Shown piece after piece: positions 47,605-54,359 of a stretch of 64,000 nt of DNA. Below the pieces are notes generated by a model. That model was not told the DNA's origin, searched no databases, and saw only the letters and a program-made list of their open reading frames with translations. The stretch covers positions 2,893 to 66,892 of the forward strand of contig JAYOTG010000003.1 of NCBI GenBank assembly GCA_038150305.1. Reading direction: 5' to 3'. The position numbers were made by a program, and so were the translations under genes. This stretch comes from Candidatus Poseidoniales archaeon (lineage in GTDB: Archaea > Thermoplasmatota > Poseidoniia > Poseidoniales > Poseidoniaceae). The number at the start of each line of letters is the position of its first letter. The first letter of the stretch is position 1.

Positions 47605-49011
47605 ATGCGTGCAACGCTTGATAGCATGTCGGCCCCTGCTCCCACCATGTTCAACGGGGTCTTCGACGACCTGCCCGCCGCACCGGCCGCGTTTACCAAC
47701 GCAGAGGTCCGGACCCGGCAAGCGAGGTTGACCTCTGGGTTGTCAACGGATACCCTCGTTCTGCTTCCTGCCCCCCAAGAGTCAACCCGATCAAACGACG
47801 TCCATTACCGCTACAGGTCCTCATCCGATCTGATGTACCTGACCGATTGGTCTGAACCCGAATCCATGGGGTATGCGTACCATGATGGAAGCGCTTGGGT
47901 CTGGGGCCTTTGCGTCCAACCGAAGGACACCCTCAAGGAAATCTGGGAGGGAAGACGCCTCGGCACCGAAGGGGTCCTCGCGCTCGGGATGGTCGACCGC
48001 ACCCATAGCATTCACGAACGCGATGGTGTGGTCCGAGACTTGCTGCAGAGCGCCAGTCGTGTTCTTCTCAGGCAAGGCATCGATGCTTCGCTGGACGCGT
48101 TGGTGCGCGTCGCGATGACGGAGCGCTCACGTCCACGCCAGCAATTCGGAACAGGTCCAGTGGTCCTCGAAGACCCGAGCGCCCGGATTGCCGAACTCCG
48201 CCTCAGGAAATCAAACGAGGAAGTGGCCGTGATGCGTCATGCTGCTGAGATTTCTGCCCGCGCTCACGTCGCTGCCATGAAGCTGCCTTCTGCGGGCCTT
48301 CACGAACGCCACATCCAAGCCGCGATTGAAGGCGGTTTTGTCTACGGCGGTGGCGACGGTTGGGCGTACCCTTCTATCGTCGGCTCAGGCGTGAACGCCA
48401 CCATCCTTCACTACACCGTGAACAATGCACCTTGCAACGTCGGAGACGTGGTGCTGATCGATGCTGGAACTGAATACCGTGGCTATGCCTCCGACATCAC
48501 CCGCTCATGGCCCGTCGGAGGTCAGTTTTCAGAAGCTCAACGGGAACTGTACACGATCGTGCTCGACGCACAAAAGGCAGCGATTGACGCATGCCGCGTC
48601 GGAGAACCCTACAACGCTCCCCACGACGCCGCACGTCGGGTTCTCGCCGAAGGGCTCATCCAACTTGGCGTCATCAAGCAAAGCCTGGATGAAGCACTCG
48701 ACCCTGAAACAGGGGAACTCCGCTGGTGGTACATGCACAACACCGGACATTGGTTGGGGCTCGACGTCCATGATGTCGGCGTGTACCGGCCCAACGGCGA
48801 ACCACGCCTCTTGGAGCCAGGTATGGTCCTCACCGTGGAACCGGGCTTGTACTTCGGTGCATGGCGGCCTGACGTGACGTGCCCTCCACGCTATGCCGAC
48901 ATTGGCATCAGGATCGAAGACGACGTCCTGGTGTCCGAGGCCGGTCCCGTGGTGCTCTCAGACGCATGTCCAAAGGAGTTGGATGACCTCGAGGCCATTG
49001 TCGGAGCGTGA
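47605..49011 (+). CDS. pepP: Xaa-Pro aminopeptidase (M24B, PepP-like)
   Basis: VVLIDAGTEYRGYASDITRSWPVGG, HNTGHWLGLDVHD, LTVEPGLYF and GIRIEDDVLV are the metal-ligand motifs of M24B. Confidence 0.88.
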   Translation: MRATLDSMSAPAPTMFNGVFDDLPAAPAAFTNAEVRTRQARLTSGLSTDTLVLLPAPQESTRSNDVHYRYRSSSDLMYLTDWSEPESMGYAYHDGSAWVWGLCVQPKDTLKEIWEGRRLGTEGVLALGMVDRTHSIHERDGVVRDLLQSASRVLLRQGIDASLDALVRVAMTERSRPRQQFGTGPVVLEDPSARIAELRLRKSNEEVAVMRHAAEISARAHVAAMKLPSAGLHERHIQAAIEGGFVYGGGDGWAYPSIVGSGVNATILHYTVNNAPCNVGDVVLIDAGTEYRGYASDITRSWPVGGQFSEAQRELYTIVLDAQKAAIDACRVGEPYNAPHDAARRVLAEGLIQLGVIKQSLDEALDPETGELRWWYMHNTGHWLGLDVHDVGVYRPNGEPRLLEPGMVLTVEPGLYFGAWRPDVTCPPRYADIGIRIEDDVLVSEAGPVVLSDACPKELDDLEAIVGA

Positions 49012-50188
49012 CGTTGTGTGGTCGGCCATTCTCGAGCGTCAGGCAGGGTGGACACCTGAAGATCCCACGGCCGTGCGCTTGTCGCCTGAGGACGCGGTGA
49101 TCCTGTACGAAACAGCGCCGCTTCACGCGCTGATGAGTGCGGCTTTGCTCCGACGGCAGCAGCAAGTTCCCGGTGGCGAGGTCACGTACCTCATCGACAG
49201 GAATGTGAATTACACCAATGCATGCACCATCAATTGCCAGTTTTGTTCCTTCTACCGGCCCATTGGCCATGATGAGGTCTACACGCAAACCATTGACGAG
49301 ATTTCACAGCGGTTCTCTGAGTTGGAGGCCATCGGAGGTGTTCGCGTGCTCATGCAGGGCGGCGTGAACCCCGACCTGCCCTTTTCGTGGTACACGGATG
49401 TCCTCCGGGAACTCCGTGTTCGTCACCCCTCCATCGACCTCGATTGCTTCAGTCCCATCGAGATTCAAGGGATGTCTGAGATCACTGGATTGAGTACCGT
49501 CGAGGTTCTCCGTGCGCTGAAGGACGCGGGGATGCACGGCTTGCCAGGTGGTGGCGCTGAGATGCTTGTGGAAGGGGTACGTCGCGATGTTTCGCCAAAG
49601 AAGGGTGGGCCGGAGCAATGGATTCGAATCATGCGTGAAGCGCAGTCCCTCGACCTCATCACCAGCGCCACCAACGTGTTTGGCTTCGGCGAGGGCGCCA
49701 TGGAACGGGTCGAGCACCTTGTCCGCGTGCGTGACATGCAGGATGAGGCCATCGCGCGAGGTGAGCGCCCGTTCACCTCGTTCATTGCATGGCCGGTCCA
49801 ACTCGAGACGAATTCCTTTGGTCGACGGAACCGAGGACAGAACCGTGTGGAACTTGGTGCTGGGCCGTCGGAATACCTTCGTCACGTGGCTGTGTCTCGT
49901 CTGATGCTCGACGTGGTCGATCACATCCAGGCGTCCTGGCCTACGATGGGCGTTGACGTGGCGCAGATGGCCCTCCTTGGTGGGGCGGACGACATCGGCT
50001 CCACCATGATGGAAGAGAACGTCGTCTCTGCATCAGGGACCTCGAAAATCTCGGCCAGCGAGCGTGAGCTGCAACGCTTGATCCGACGAGCCGGGTTGAC
50101 GCCTCGTCGACGGAACAGCCGGTACGAGTTGCTCGAGACCCCACACGACGACGAAGACCTCGCGGCCCCCGTGCCCATGCTGGCTTAG
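48983..50188 (+). CDS. Radical SAM enzyme of the MqnC/MqnE/CofH family (probable futalosine-pathway menaquinone biosynthesis)
   Basis: NVNYTNACTINCQFCSFYR (CxxxCxxC cluster), VLMQGGVNPDLPFSWY, and a C-terminal TIM-barrel extension. Start taken at ATG 48983, overlapping pepP by 29 nt. MqnC and MqnE cannot be told apart by eye. Confidence 0.75.
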   Translation: MTSRPLSERDVVWSAILERQAGWTPEDPTAVRLSPEDAVILYETAPLHALMSAALLRRQQQVPGGEVTYLIDRNVNYTNACTINCQFCSFYRPIGHDEVYTQTIDEISQRFSELEAIGGVRVLMQGGVNPDLPFSWYTDVLRELRVRHPSIDLDCFSPIEIQGMSEITGLSTVEVLRALKDAGMHGLPGGGAEMLVEGVRRDVSPKKGGPEQWIRIMREAQSLDLITSATNVFGFGEGAMERVEHLVRVRDMQDEAIARGERPFTSFIAWPVQLETNSFGRRNRGQNRVELGAGPSEYLRHVAVSRLMLDVVDHIQASWPTMGVDVAQMALLGGADDIGSTMMEENVVSASGTSKISASERELQRLIRRAGLTPRRRNSRYELLETPHDDEDLAAPVPMLA

Positions 50189-53100
50189 GCTCGCTCGGGC
50201 AGCGGCATGTCATACACCACCCAGATTTCGGCGTGGATGTTTCGACCACCAGTGGCCGATTCACCGGTCGGTTGGTATTCTGCGCCGTTGAACAAGCCGC
50301 GGTAACTCAGCGTTTCTGTCGCGCCAGGGGTCACCCAATCCGTGATGTCGTAGGTCCACTGCTTTACGTCCTGACCCGCACACCAACCCGCGCGTCCAAA
50401 GGGCCAGGAGCCAAACTGATTGGCCACGACACCCCGTGGGACTTCCTGTTCGCACCCTGTGTTGCTGTAGACGATCGGGTGCCACTCGTACGCCGTGTTG
50501 CTTCCGATCGTGAAATGGTGCTCATGATCGCAGAACTCGGCACAATTTGCGTCGTCCTTCTGGAAGCCGTGACCGGTGATGGTGGCAACGATGCGAACCC
50601 GCGAGGCGTCCACTGGGACGCTGAGGGTTCGTTCCCTTTCGTAGAGGGCAGGGTCGTTGTAACTCCCGTTGAATTGCCCACCAGTGAAGGCGAAGGTCGC
50701 TGATGAGGGGCGATGGTCGACGGTGCTCTCGCCCCACCTCGAAAAGAGCAAGGTGATGGTCAGGCTACCCCCGTTAGCACCTCGGTAGGTGAACCGACGG
50801 TCTTCGCCGTCATCGAGCATGAAGAGGTATGGTGAGAGGTCCGTTAGCCATCGTCCTTCTCGGCCGTAGGTGGTGATCCACCGTGCAAATTCTGTACCGC
50901 ATTTGGACGCGTTATCACGATCACAAATGCGGAGGTTTGCCTCGTAATCCCACTCGTGGCATCCCGCATACCCACCCGAAGGGGTCTGGTAACGGTCGCG
51001 TCGTTCAGAACATGCGTGCTCGTGGAACATCTCGAGGGTGTCGTAGGTCGCCAAATCGTGGTTGAGGTCGATGGTCGCGTTCATGGCGGTCGTGAAACCT
51101 CCGCCCCAGCCGCCTTGATGCTGGTCTTCCAACATCAAATCGACCGCTTCTACGGCTGGATCTGAACGTCGGATTTCCACCGGGTGCTCTGCATGCCACA
51201 TCCATGCCTCATGGGACATGTGCTGCGGGTCGTAGGTGGTGCTGGAGGTCCCCCACGTGTACGTCGAGCCGGTTTGCCTCAACCGCTGGAAGCGGTCGAT
51301 GCCGAAGGTCGTCGGCTCGCCTAGAGCGGAGAGCGCCTCGCCGAGTCCACCGGTGGCTCCGCTCAAGTCGAGGTCGAGGTAGTGGATGCGTCCTTCCCAT
51401 GCTTCTTCCTCATTGGCGTTGAGGCGTTGCTCGACGTCCGCCTTTCGGTCCGTGACTTGGGACCTGTAGGAACTGTCGTATGATCCGTACACCAGATGCG
51501 TGTCGTCCGGGAGGTTCCGGGTCAGGGTTCCTGGATTCATGGTGAAGGTCGAAGCGCTCGACCCACTGCTGGTGGTTTTCATCAAAATGAACAGGTACGT
51601 GCTGTTGCCGTCCCAAAGATCCGAGAAGGTCAAGGATCCCGACAGCGTCGGTACGGTGAATTCACCGACGGTCTGGAAAGGACCTGACACCGTCGGCGCT
51701 CCCTGCGTGCTGGTCCAAGGCACAGGCAACTGAACGACGGCGCAACCGTTCTCATCGATGGTCCAGCGTGTGGGGCTGGATGGACATTGGTCGTTTTGCA
51801 GATGCACGCCATCTCCGTCCACGTCCTCACAGCCTTGTTCATCGGTGGCGGTTGATGGCGGGGTGCCAAGGCAGAGGTCGTTGGCATCCACCACTCCATC
51901 TCCGTCGGTGTCGCGCTGATCGGCGGCACAACCGAACTCGTCCACGGCTGCACCGATGGTTGATTGTGGGCAGAGGTCCAGCATGGTGCCGTTCAAATCC
52001 ATGTCGTGGACGCCATCGTTGTCATCGTCTTCGTCTTCGGTGAGGTCCAAGCATCCATCCCGGTCCCAGTCTGTTGAATTATCTTGAAGCCACGCCGATT
52101 CGCCCTTTGGGCAGGCATCGTCAACGTCGAGGACCGTGTCGGAATCGTCGTCCTCGTCTTCCTCGCTGTCGATGCAACCGTCCAGATCCCAATCGAGTGA
52201 GCGCAGGCTGGTCCATCCCGTCATGCCTTGTGGGCACGCATCCTCCACGTCCCGACGTCCGTCGTTGTCGTCGTCGTCATCCTCGCTTGCATCACGGCAT
52301 CCATCGTTGTCATGATCCTCAAGCGCGCTGGACGTCCATCCGGGCTCCGAAAGACATCCGTCCAAGGCATCGTTGATCTCATCGTTGTCGTCGTCTTCGT
52401 CTTCATCGCGGTCCCTGCACCCGTCTCCATCGTGGTCCGTGGATCCTTTGCTGGTCCAACCTTCCGATTCTCCCACGCCGTTCGGGCAGAAATCAAGGTC
52501 ATCGTGCACGCCGTCTCCGTCAGCGTCGACCACAACCTCACTCAGGATGAGGCGAACGCTTCGTTCGTCCGTTGCCGAGTCGACAGGACCGACACACGTT
52601 GCCGTGAACACAAGAACAGGGGGGAGGCCCTCTTCCGCCCTGTTGATGTTGAACGAGCGGGCGTCATCAAGCATGACTTCCTCGAAGTCTGTATCAGGAC
52701 CGAGGTCCATTACTACACTGCACAACACCGAGTCGAGGTCCTGCTCAGGGCGGTCCCTGAGCGGCGCAACTTGACCCTGAATCGAGATGGTGCCCTCGTC
52801 CGCAACGGCGGCCACGGGAAGGACGAGGCGAACCCCTGCCTGGCCAATCTCAACCGTTGTCTCAAGCGTGAGGGGTCCGTCATCGAACAAGACATCCTCT
52901 TCTGGCATGAGGTCAACGCTGACCTGAACCACTCCGGTTGACGGGGCCACCATGGCCACGACGAGCACATCGGTGCGTGAGACCGCCACGTCGCGGACAA
53001 CTTCAGGTGCGCTCACGCCGTAGGTGGTCCGTACATCCCCGACGGCGACGCTCTCGAGATACTGGAGCGGAATGCCTTCTACCTCAAAGATGAGAAGGTC

Positions 53101-53274
53101 CCCAGCAACTGGATTACGAATGGACGATGCCGGGTTGAGTTCCCAGTTCACGGTGGCCAACGTGGGCGTCTTTGTTTCAACGGGTTCTGGTTCGACGATC
53201 TCCTCGCCAATCCCCAAACATCCGGCCATCAGCATGGTCAGGACCAAGGCCACGGCAATCAATGGTCTGCGCAT
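50185..53274 (-). CDS. Predicted lipoprotein: Ig-like N-terminal region, cysteine-containing TSP3 repeats, central beta-rich region, C-terminal PNGase F-like two-domain module
   Basis: The ATG at 53274 gives MRRPLIAVALVLTMLMAGCLG (lipobox-like MAGC). The track start at 53304 is TTG. Four ~40-aa units follow the pattern GWTS..DHDGDGCRD..EDEDDDNDEI.D..D.C. The C-terminus has GCHEWDYEANLRIC, ARWITTYGREGRW, ATITGHGFQKDDANCAEFCDHEHHF and GRAGWCAGQDV. From memory, these match Elizabethkingia PNGase F motifs CDEWDRYANVYV, GRFITPYW, TTISGWGH...GCAEWCFRTH and DRAGWCPG. Confidence 0.8.
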   Translation of the reverse strand: MRRPLIAVALVLTMLMAGCLGIGEEIVEPEPVETKTPTLATVNWELNPASSIRNPVAGDLLIFEVEGIPLQYLESVAVGDVRTTYGVSAPEVVRDVAVSRTDVLVVAMVAPSTGVVQVSVDLMPEEDVLFDDGPLTLETTVEIGQAGVRLVLPVAAVADEGTISIQGQVAPLRDRPEQDLDSVLCSVVMDLGPDTDFEEVMLDDARSFNINRAEEGLPPVLVFTATCVGPVDSATDERSVRLILSEVVVDADGDGVHDDLDFCPNGVGESEGWTSKGSTDHDGDGCRDRDEDEDDDNDEINDALDGCLSEPGWTSSALEDHDNDGCRDASEDDDDDNDGRRDVEDACPQGMTGWTSLRSLDWDLDGCIDSEEDEDDDSDTVLDVDDACPKGESAWLQDNSTDWDRDGCLDLTEDEDDDNDGVHDMDLNGTMLDLCPQSTIGAAVDEFGCAADQRDTDGDGVVDANDLCLGTPPSTATDEQGCEDVDGDGVHLQNDQCPSSPTRWTIDENGCAVVQLPVPWTSTQGAPTVSGPFQTVGEFTVPTLSGSLTFSDLWDGNSTYLFILMKTTSSGSSASTFTMNPGTLTRNLPDDTHLVYGSYDSSYRSQVTDRKADVEQRLNANEEEAWEGRIHYLDLDLSGATGGLGEALSALGEPTTFGIDRFQRLRQTGSTYTWGTSSTTYDPQHMSHEAWMWHAEHPVEIRRSDPAVEAVDLMLEDQHQGGWGGGFTTAMNATIDLNHDLATYDTLEMFHEHACSERRDRYQTPSGGYAGCHEWDYEANLRICDRDNASKCGTEFARWITTYGREGRWLTDLSPYLFMLDDGEDRRFTYRGANGGSLTITLLFSRWGESTVDHRPSSATFAFTGGQFNGSYNDPALYERERTLSVPVDASRVRIVATITGHGFQKDDANCAEFCDHEHHFTIGSNTAYEWHPIVYSNTGCEQEVPRGVVANQFGSWPFGRAGWCAGQDVKQWTYDITDWVTPGATETLSYRGLFNGAEYQPTGESATGGRNIHAEIWVVYDMPLPERA
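51775..52527 (-). repeat. Protein-level TSP3 (Cys-containing) repeat region within the lipoprotein CDS
   Basis: Spans aa ~260-510 (numbered from 53304): DADGDGVHDDLDFCPNG, DHDGDGCRDRDEDEDDDNDE, DHDNDGCRDASEDDDDDNDG, DWDLDGCIDSEEDEDDDSD, DWDRDGCLDLTEDEDDDNDG, DTDGDGVVDANDLC, DVDGDGVHLQNDQCP. Confidence 0.75.
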
Positions 53275-53300
53275 GACCGGGCAATGCGCGGCAAGGAACC

Positions 53301-54359
53301 TCAACGTGTCGGTGCAGGATGAGCGTGTTCAGCGCGCCCGTCGGTCAATTCGACGGTCAGTTTTGGAATGGGTGCTTGAGGCCACCGGGCTCGGACCGGC
53401 GTCACGTGGAGCATTCGACCGTGGACAGGATGGTCGCACGCCACGATGATTTCCCAGTGGATCCTGATGAGTGCATCGTACATGGTGCCTGGCCACGGAC
53501 CTGCCGGTGCCTCGACCTTGACGTTGCGGCCCGCCACGGGCGACCATGCCCCTCGGGCGGCTAGCCTCATGGGCCGAAGATAGACATCACCCGGCCAATC
53601 GTGACGTCCCATCGGCGATTCTTCTCCGAGGCCCGTCCCGTCGCCCATGGCGGGTTCCATGCCTTCCAAGGCGGTGGTCATCCCGGGCGGGGGCTGACGG
53701 TTCGGATGTCTGTGAAGGGCGCTGAGGATGTGGTGCCTTCGTGGTGCCAACACGCCACATTGGAGGCTTGCATACACGGCGTATTCAGCTGCACGCCCGC
53801 CAATGCTGATGCGGGTCGCTCCCTCGCTCCTGACCTCATCAATGTCGACCTCAAGGCGCAGCCGCTCGTCGGCCATGATGTTGGTTTGCCTGCGAAGGTC
53901 ACCCACGTTGACGGTCAAACGCAACACGAGAGGCAACAAGATCAGCGGGACAACGATCAGCCCGAGAAGTGGATAGTCCAAGAGACCTAACCGGACGCTA
54001 TTGGTCCCGAAGGTCGGGATGTTCAGGGCGTCAAAACCCGGTGCAAGCGCGAGATAGAGCAGGGTGAGCAACATCACGATGCCCACGCCATCCACCATGC
54101 GGCGAAGGCGCCGGTGGAGGGGGCGCGGCTCGAGGAACCACCCCGTTCGCTGAGCTTTGACGACACTGGGAAACGGCCTCGATTCAATGGATTCTCCCTG
54201 GACGTCGCCAAGTCCTCGTCGCTCGACAAACCAGCCTTCTGTGGTTTCAATGCGAAACTCTGAACCAAACGCGCGATCGATGGGGCCAACGACCGGGTCG
54301 AGTTCCGTCGGTTTCAGCCTTCGTGGGTCGAAGGGTGGATGGCGATACATCTCTTCCAT
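53301..54359 (-). CDS. Hypothetical membrane protein (two central TM helices)
   Basis: 352 aa. Helices GVGIVMLLTLLYLALAPGF and LLGLIVVPLILLPLVLRL. Tightly packed between the GGR gene and the lipoprotein gene. Confidence 0.6.
   Translation of the reverse strand: MEEMYRHPPFDPRRLKPTELDPVVGPIDRAFGSEFRIETTEGWFVERRGLGDVQGESIESRPFPSVVKAQRTGWFLEPRPLHRRLRRMVDGVGIVMLLTLLYLALAPGFDALNIPTFGTNSVRLGLLDYPLLGLIVVPLILLPLVLRLTVNVGDLRRQTNIMADERLRLEVDIDEVRSEGATRISIGGRAAEYAVYASLQCGVLAPRRHHILSALHRHPNRQPPPGMTTALEGMEPAMGDGTGLGEESPMGRHDWPGDVYLRPMRLAARGAWSPVAGRNVKVEAPAGPWPGTMYDALIRIHWEIIVACDHPVHGRMLHVTPVRARWPQAPIPKLTVELTDGRAEHAHPAPTR

Follow-up and report, generated by a model that had tools for sequence, protein, structure and literature searches.

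How might archaea that appear to live on protein gain access to protein that is masked by sugars? The archaea of Marine Group II (MGII) are very abundant and have not been cultured; that they are heterotrophs has been inferred mainly from their peptidase genes. Among the archaea of the surface ocean, the Poseidoniaceae rank with the most abundant. Much of the dissolved and particulate protein in the sea is glycosylated, and enzymes of the PNGase F family cut N-linked sugars off proteins. The question is raised by a gene of a Candidatus Poseidoniales archaeon that lies in the 64,000-nucleotide stretch analyzed here (the window; assembly GCA_038150305.1, contig JAYOTG010000003.1, positions 2,893 to 66,892), and in which a first-pass annotation made from the letters alone had noticed a PNGase F-like module. 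In our assessment it is fairly likely that this gene encodes a cell-surface peptide:N-glycanase (PNGase) of the PNGase F superfamily, specifically of the type represented by the fish enzyme Ngly2, which would act extracellularly and unmask scavenged glycoproteins.

The Gene and Its Domain Composition

In the six-frame list of open reading frames (ORFs) of the window, the gene appears as a minus-strand frame of 1039 amino acids (aa; 50185..53304), whose translation contains every motif quoted in the first-pass annotation (GCHEWDYEAN, ARWITTYGREGRW, ATITGHGF, NCAEFCDHEHHF, GRAGWCAGQDV, and LMAGC). Judging from the orthologous N-termini, the start codon is the ATG at 53274 that had been proposed there and not the TTG at 53304: All 64 of the 64 full-length orthologues open with a methionine, a K/R-rich and a hydrophobic segment, and [AGS]GC, and database gene models at 98% identity comprise 1029 aa. 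Residue numbers refer to this 1029-aa protein; numbers along the 1039-aa ORF are higher by 10. An AlphaFold (AF2) model built on a 141-row alignment of archaeal and bacterial homologues reaches an overall predicted local distance difference test score (pLDDT) of 82.3. From the N- to the C-terminus, the coding sequence and its parts are as follows:

50185..53274, minus strand: complete coding sequence of a predicted surface lipoprotein with TSP3, thioredoxin-like, and PNGase parts (1029 aa plus stop)
53218..53274, minus strand: signal peptide with lipobox (MRRPLIAVALVLTMLMAG followed by C), Cys19 being the predicted lipidated residue
52546..53172, minus strand: two tandem immunoglobulin/fibronectin type III (Ig/FN3)-like β-sandwich domains, residues 35–243
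51670..52542, minus strand: acidic, putatively Ca-binding thrombospondin type-3 (TSP3) repeat region, residues 245–535
51160..51669, minus strand: Cys-free thioredoxin-like α/β domain, residues 536–705
50188..51159, minus strand: PNGase F-superfamily domain with two jelly-roll subdomains and eight conserved Cys, residues 706–1029

A PNGase Domain with a Conserved Active Site

The sole significant Pfam family in a scan of the full-length protein is N-glycanase_C (PF09113), which scores 65.2 bits against a cut-off of 25 (E 6.8e-18) with the whole protein and 67.6 bits with the excised domain. In a phmmer search against all PDB sequences, zebrafish Ngly2 (9LWG) is matched at E 5.7e-42 and three PNGase F entries at about 3e-6 (best 2.6e-6), the latter in an alignment that spans PNGase F residues 2–277 and thereby both subdomains. 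Ngly2 is a fish lysosomal acid peptide:N-glycanase that was identified in 2025 (Honda et al., J Biol Chem 2025; PMC12753239; PDB 9LWG); its D421A and E555A mutants are inactive, and His422 and His546 have been proposed as the source of its acid pH optimum (PMC12753239). The pairwise identity of the archaeal domain is 34.5% to Ngly2 (over 278 aa) and 24.8% to PNGase F. In the AF2 model, residues 706–1029 form two tandem eight-stranded β jelly rolls with a pLDDT of ≈90, and Foldseek against the PDB returns 9lwg_A as the top match (E 9e-34, 646 columns), followed by PNGase F (template modeling (TM) score 0.74–0.76; 1png with TM 0.76 and E 7e-16), PNGase F-II, and Bacteroides PNGase-like structures. 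The sequence signal is far above chance, and the profile match, the PDB sequence search, and the predicted fold agree that the module recognized in the first-pass annotation is a genuine member of the PNGase F superfamily.

We then compared the active site residue by residue, counting conservation over a family alignment of 116 domains and over a separate alignment of 141 archaeal and bacterial homologues:

50947..50949, minus strand: codon of Asp776 (Asp786 in ORF numbering), corresponding to D60 of PNGase F and D421 of Ngly2; 115/116 (one gap) and 141/141
50536..50538, minus strand: codon of Glu913 (Glu923 in ORF numbering), corresponding to E206 of PNGase F and E555 of Ngly2; 116/116 and 141/141
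Arg961, corresponding to R248 of PNGase F; kept in 115/116
Trp964, corresponding to W251 of PNGase F; kept in 116/116
Trp775, corresponding to W59 of PNGase F; kept in 112/116
Tyr803, corresponding to Y85 of PNGase F; kept in 112/116
His902, corresponding to W191 of PNGase F and H546 of Ngly2; His in 116/116
Tyr777, corresponding to R61 of PNGase F and H422 of Ngly2; Tyr in 76/116

The domain hence retains the catalytic Asp/Glu pair, as the first-pass annotation had suggested, together with the equivalents of Arg248, Trp251, Trp59, and Tyr85 and all disulfide cysteines, a pattern of purifying conservation. The six cysteines of the PNGase F disulfides C51–C56, C204–C208, and C231–C252 are all aligned and nearly invariant, and all eight cysteines of the domain are invariant among the 141 sequences. 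The same annotation had taken the E118 position for substituted; in the alignment the E118/W120 loop of PNGase F is gapped, both here and in about 100 of the 116 family members.

Could the domain have kept its fold and become catalytically silent? The protein would then be an adhesin whose C-terminus binds glycans in the manner of a lectin. Modules such as its Ig-like and TSP3 parts are characteristic of adhesins, the domain lacks the E118/W120 loop and has Tyr in place of R61, and a role in adhesion has been ascribed to the TSP3 ‘thrombospondin’ proteins of MGII, Rinke et al. having listed thrombospondin genes as adhesion traits of the Poseidoniales (PMC6461757). We nevertheless regard this explanation as quite improbable because of the invariant catalytic pair: Binding-only domains usually lose it, whereas here neither the two catalytic acids nor R248 nor any disulfide varies among ≈140 sequences from archaea and bacteria. 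Moreover, Ngly2 differs from PNGase F in the same way, yet is a proven enzyme (PMC12753239); as the experimentally active Ngly2 is likewise without E118, the loss of this residue is no argument against activity.

Relationship to Ngly2, PNGase F, and Bacterial Lipoproteins

Among the PDB entries, Ngly2 is the closest match in both sequence and fold. The two proteins have in common a thioredoxin-like domain that is followed by the PNGase domain, the same catalytic Asp/Glu pair, a His at the position of H546, an extra disulfide (C794–C802, ORF numbering), and the lack of the E118/W120 loop, where Ngly2 has Ala aligned with Glu118 and is gapped at Trp120. They differ in that Ngly2 contains a protease-associated (PA) domain, which is missing in the archaeal protein (no PA match in the Pfam scan, and a continuous stretch from the thioredoxin-like to the PNGase domain in the AF2 model), and in that the archaeal protein has Tyr in place of His422. 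Furthermore, the archaeal protein adds a lipobox, the Ig-like pair, and a TSP3 region of ≈290 aa, whereas Ngly2 has a lysosomal targeting context. Since the archaeal protein is predicted to be extracellular and thus exposed to seawater of about pH 8, an acid optimum would not be expected.

PNGase F (Elizabethkingia meningoseptica; 1PNF/1PNG/1PGS; EC 3.5.1.52) shares with the archaeal domain the two-jelly-roll fold, D60, E206, R248, W59, W251, Y85, and its three disulfides. In contrast to this common core, identity is low, W191 is replaced by His, R61 by Tyr, and W207 by Phe, and there is no E118/W120 loop; PNGase F itself is a free secreted enzyme of 314 aa without thioredoxin-like, TSP3, or Ig modules. 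PNGase F-II (4R4X) and the putative PNGases of Bacteroides (3KS7, 4QHB, 7ZGN) have the same superfamily fold (Foldseek E 1e-12 to 1e-10), but are far more distant (9–14% identity) and carry other accessory domains. Closer are bacterial lipoproteins of ≈550 aa annotated as ‘peptide-N-glycosidase F-related protein’, whose named records stem from metagenome-assembled genomes (MAGs) of Myxococcota or ‘Deltaproteobacteria’: They are 30–35% identical over the thioredoxin-like and PNGase domains and 40–46% within the PNGase domain, and they, too, have Cys-containing signal peptides at the N-terminus, but are without the Ig-like pair and mostly without a TSP3 stalk, and their gene neighborhoods are not conserved. 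One Acidobacteriota homologue has 20 TSP3 motifs. These sequence comparisons place the archaeal protein in the Ngly2-type family, whose members have a thioredoxin-like domain ahead of the PNGase domain, and not close to Bacteroidota PNGase F.

Predicted Surface Anchoring and the N-Terminal Modules

The signal peptide is of the Sec type and ends in the lipobox; residues 4–16 are helical in the AF2 model. LMAGC fits the pattern [L/V/I][A/S/T/V/I][G/A/S]C after an n-region and an h-region that defines AliA/AliB-dependent archaeal lipoproteins (PMC12462473), and an equivalent motif occurs in 64/64 full-length orthologues, with which the lipobox and the interpretation as a surface enzyme given in the first-pass annotation hold. 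As Cys19 is presumably lipid-modified, the N-terminus would stay on the membrane.

The membrane-proximal Ig-like pair is well modeled (AF2 strands at pLDDT ≈85–90; Foldseek matches to Ig/FN3 pairs of titin and contactin) and almost unconserved between genera: The homologue alignment has no consensus there, and many orthologues align from about residue 235 onward only, whereas the TSP3, thioredoxin-like, and PNGase parts are conserved. The TSP3 region matches PF02412 in five stretches (26.0 bits against a cut-off of 25) as well as NF047638 (throspo3). It contains nine DxDxDG motifs, 24% Asp, and 16 paired Cys, and is without regular secondary structure in the AF2 model; this composition suggests that it binds Ca. 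The four Cys-containing repeats of ≈40 aa described in the first-pass annotation are among these motifs and follow the scheme GW(T/L)x...DxDxDGCxD...(E/D)DDD(N/S)D.

The thioredoxin-like domain, located directly N-terminal to the PNGase domain, shows β-α-β topology in the AF2 model (pLDDT ≈90), and the 646-column Foldseek alignment with 9lwg_A, which extends far beyond the PNGase domain, covers it as well. Pfam scanning gave no match for residues 536–705; the N-terminal motif of the domain is also seen in bacterial homologues. There is no Cys between residues 521 and 765 of the protein translation (P0001), so that the domain is Cys-free; it is redox-inactive.

Distribution, Synteny, and Probable Loss of the Gene

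According to the first-pass annotation, an archaeal protein of this kind would be unusual. It is not an outlier: It is encoded by a single-copy gene that is syntenic, nearly universal in MGIIa, and already named in the NCBI databases. Of the 201 Poseidoniales genomes sampled, 115 contain PF09113 within intact ORFs that are about 1000 aa long, among them about 89 of the 100 that belong to the window's own family (MGIIa); within MGIIb it occurs in the larger-genome genera only, and genera of 1.3–1.5 Mb are without it. Across the phylum, PF09113 is confined to the class Poseidoniia, including the small-genome family f4. A scan of species-representative genomes yielded 79 loci at 43–93% identity, nearly all of which are titled as Poseidoniales, Poseidoniaceae, or MGII MAGs. 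The GenBank entry AIF05981.1 is called ‘putative N-glycosidase F [uncultured marine group II/III euryarchaeote KM3_18_D06]’, and the Prokaryotic Genome Annotation Pipeline (PGAP) name reads ‘peptide-N-glycosidase F-related protein [Candidatus Poseidoniaceae archaeon]’.

Wherever the locus extends far enough to reveal it, the gene order is the same: topoisomerase, geranylgeranyl reductase, a 352-aa membrane protein, the PNGase protein, and then, convergently oriented, an MqnC/CofH-like radical-SAM protein and an M24 aminopeptidase. In the window, the upstream neighbor is:

53301..54359, minus strand: 352-aa membrane protein with a two-transmembrane hairpin, both termini being predicted cytoplasmic

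In three streamlined MGIIb genomes that lack the PNGase gene (L088, i.e., G023:C4:117000-131000, L089, and L090), the flanking genes are contiguous and the slot is empty, the 352-aa gene ending 22–160 nt from the MqnC-like gene. As the same block is thus found with the 352-aa gene abutting the MqnC-like gene, the PNGase gene is either cleanly present or cleanly absent at a single slot. This is explained most economically if the gene was ancestrally present in the Poseidoniales and lost in the streamlined genera; the indel polymorphism of the empty slot is useful for dating this loss.

The copies of family f4 (L083–L085 in genomes G373, G461, and G340; same class, 1.0–1.3 Mb) stand apart: They comprise 853–898 aa at ≈31% identity, have TSP3-like repeats right after the lipobox and no Ig-like pair, and lie outside the Poseidoniales syntenic block. 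They could have a separate history or be deeply diverged.

Proposed Function

Combining domain composition, model, and distribution, we propose the following course of events. Lipid modification of Cys19 would hold the N-terminus at the membrane, and the Ca-loaded, Ca-stiffened TSP3 region would serve as a spacer that keeps the catalytic module off the cell. There, the enzyme would hydrolyze the Asn–GlcNAc amide bond of N-glycoproteins or glycopeptides that are present in seawater, for example in phytoplankton exudates and debris, and the deglycosylation would unmask peptides for the peptidases and transporters of the archaeon. The enzyme probably serves to obtain peptide rather than sugar: Protein degradation has been inferred as the way of life of every Poseidoniales genus (PMC6461757), and the window's genome (≈86% complete) contains no members of GH20, GH92, or GH38, the three glycosidase families that were checked; for both reasons, peptide unmasking is favored over glycan foraging.

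The lack of these three families would equally suit an enzyme that works on the archaeon's own surface, where it might trim or recycle the N-glycans of the S-layer or of surface glycoproteins in the course of turnover, remodeling, or the release of attached cells. Such a role would also agree with the tethering of the protein to its own cell surface by the lipobox and with the status of the gene, which is conserved as a core gene in single copy and lies in a syntenic block of housekeeping-like character. It is, however, unlikely in our view: Whole MGIIb genera have lost the PNGase gene cleanly and yet keep its neighbors, which fits an accessory nutritional trait better than envelope maintenance, and an enzyme that a long spacer keeps at a great distance from the membrane is well placed for external substrates.

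Several observations weigh against an extracellular N-glycanase that unmasks peptides. Of the two Pfam models considered in the first-pass annotation, only PF09113 stood; PF09112 (N-glycanase_N) gives no match even at E ≤ 10, neither with the whole protein nor with the excised domain. The N-terminal jelly roll is nonetheless aligned by phmmer to PNGase F residues 2–140 and present in the AF2 model. With no E118/W120 loop and with Tyr in place of Arg61, the glycan subsite is remodeled, and something other than classical chitobiose-core N-glycans could be the substrate. The glycosidase check spans three families in a genome that is 86% complete. Finally, a lipid-modified Cys19 is predicted from the motif, lipidation at an archaeal lipobox has been demonstrated in Haloferax only, and AliA has gaps in the Thermoplasmata (PMC12462473).

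How much of this is new? The family, the fold, the catalytic residues, and the database annotation are already known: We are dealing with an uncharacterized archaeal member that has an elaborated surface tether and not with a new kind of system. New are the phyletic and empty-site test of the neighbor gene (see below), the tree, and the glycosidase check. In the literature searched, no paper links PNGases with MGII, Poseidoniales, or Euryarchaeota and discusses these proteins; Rinke et al. mention ‘thrombospondin genes’ only, as adhesion traits (PMC6461757). With roughly even confidence, we put forward a fuller picture from sequence and model: This core Poseidoniaceae gene may encode a peptide:N-glycanase, the first from archaea, in the form of an ecto-enzyme of the Ngly2 type that is anchored by a lipid, tethered by a Ca stalk, and would operate at seawater pH and strip N-glycans from phytoplankton glycoproteins so that the peptides get consumed, and its loss in streamlined MGIIb may reflect a niche split.

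If this is true, the protein would be the first PNGase from Archaea, an unrecognized step would be added to the remineralization of marine glycoproteins, and the clean disappearance of the gene from its slot in the streamlined genera of MGIIb would indicate that nutritional niches have split. The access of MGII to glycosylated protein would be explained by a conserved N-glycanase on the cell surface. The neutral-to-alkaline seawater setting, as opposed to the acid lysosomal one of Ngly2, would constitute a natural experiment on the pH optimum within one family, and the enzyme might become a new glycobiology reagent.

Evolutionary Origin

The first-pass annotation had suggested a test for horizontal gene transfer from Bacteroidota. 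An exhaustive HMMER search of 1.8 billion cluster representatives retrieved 1281 clusters at E ≤ 1e-3 and 202 at E ≤ 1e-30. Most homologues are lipoprotein-like, ≈500–750 aa long, with the PNGase domain at the C-terminus; those with a taxon name belong mostly to Myxococcota or ‘Deltaproteobacteria’ MAGs, in addition to a marine fosmid bacterium and an Acidobacteriota TSP3 protein. The Ngly2-type family is abundant in Myxococcota-like bacteria and occurs also in aquatic animals.

In a maximum-likelihood tree of 117–122 PNGase domains (a quick tree with a long-branch root), the Poseidoniales sequences (families f1–f3) form one clade with a support of 100 in the Shimodaira–Hasegawa-like approximate likelihood ratio test (SH-aLRT), nested among Ngly2-type bacterial lipoproteins. 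Its nearest sister sequences from outside the Poseidoniales (P0022, P0066, P0097, P0133) are metagenome proteins; the f4 copies group with three metagenome proteins and are weakly (43) sister to the Poseidoniales clade. PNGase F, at 25% identity, is a long-branch outgroup while the archaeal clade is nested elsewhere, and an origin from Bacteroidota PNGase F is rejected on these grounds. A single old acquisition from bacteria is plausible, as far as the long-branch root allows.

Two further observations emerged from the tree. The fish Ngly2 (P0149) nests inside the bacterial radiation of proteins with thioredoxin-like and PNGase domains, beside a group that contains Myxococcota/‘Deltaproteobacteria’ MAG proteins (SH-aLRT 85), which, in a quick tree rooted on a long branch, hints at a bacterial gene as the source of metazoan Ngly2. 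In addition, the metagenome protein P0005 (1392 aa) carries two full tandem PNGase-type domains (residues ≈456–733 and ≈1082–1388) that occupy separate positions in the tree.

The 352-aa Membrane Protein

Is the neighboring gene part of the same system? As the first-pass annotation had noted, it encodes a two-transmembrane protein of 352 aa and stops 26 nt before the ATG at 53274. The hydrophobic segments span residues ≈88–110 and ≈124–150, and K/R residues number six and five in the outer flanks versus one in the loop. By the positive-inside rule, these K/R-rich flanks predict an in–in hairpin with both soluble parts in the cytoplasm. The C-terminal part of the family is strongly conserved (QPPPG..T..DDGTG.GE..PM...WPG...IHWE); a profile search against the PDB and Pfam scans of 35 members revealed no relative.

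The annotation had also suspected a partner of the PNGase protein in it, and one could conceive of a dedicated two-gene system in which the membrane protein acts as anchor, export helper, or signal transducer. The two genes lie on the same strand and, among the loci examined, next to each other in every MGIIa locus and in most of those from MGIIb, and the gap of 25–70 nt in 60 loci makes co-transcription possible. This adjacency is, however, weakly informative because the six-gene block is syntenic as a whole, and the phyletic pattern speaks against the pairing: The 352-aa family occurs in 181 of the 201 genomes, including all genera that lack the PNGase (g14–17, 19, 23, 24), where the gene is intact and, in the empty-slot loci, abuts the MqnC-like gene, but it was not detected among these genomes in f2/g11, g18, and g22, which carry the PNGase. 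Internal stops flagged for the 352-aa family in one MGIIb genus proved to be its terminal stop codons. Moreover, no such neighbor stands beside the bacterial PNGase homologues in the loci examined, and the predicted topology would put both soluble parts of the membrane protein on the cytoplasmic side. A dedicated system is accordingly very improbable in our estimation, and an obligate partnership is rejected by phyletic pattern, empty-site loci, and bacterial contexts: The 352-aa protein is a core Poseidoniales gene product, a neighbor and not an obligate partner.

The Convergent Downstream Genes

On the other side, the stop codon of the PNGase gene overlaps that of the MqnC/CofH-like radical-SAM gene (50185–50187 on the minus and 50186–50188 on the plus strand), which leaves no intergenic room for a terminator at 50185–50188. 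The listed MqnC/CofH-like ORF (48893–50188) in turn overlaps the end of the M24 Xaa-Pro aminopeptidase ORF (47605–49011) by ≈119 nt. Since orthologue matches to MqnC begin at about residue 40–43, the true MqnC-like start probably lies downstream of the listed one.

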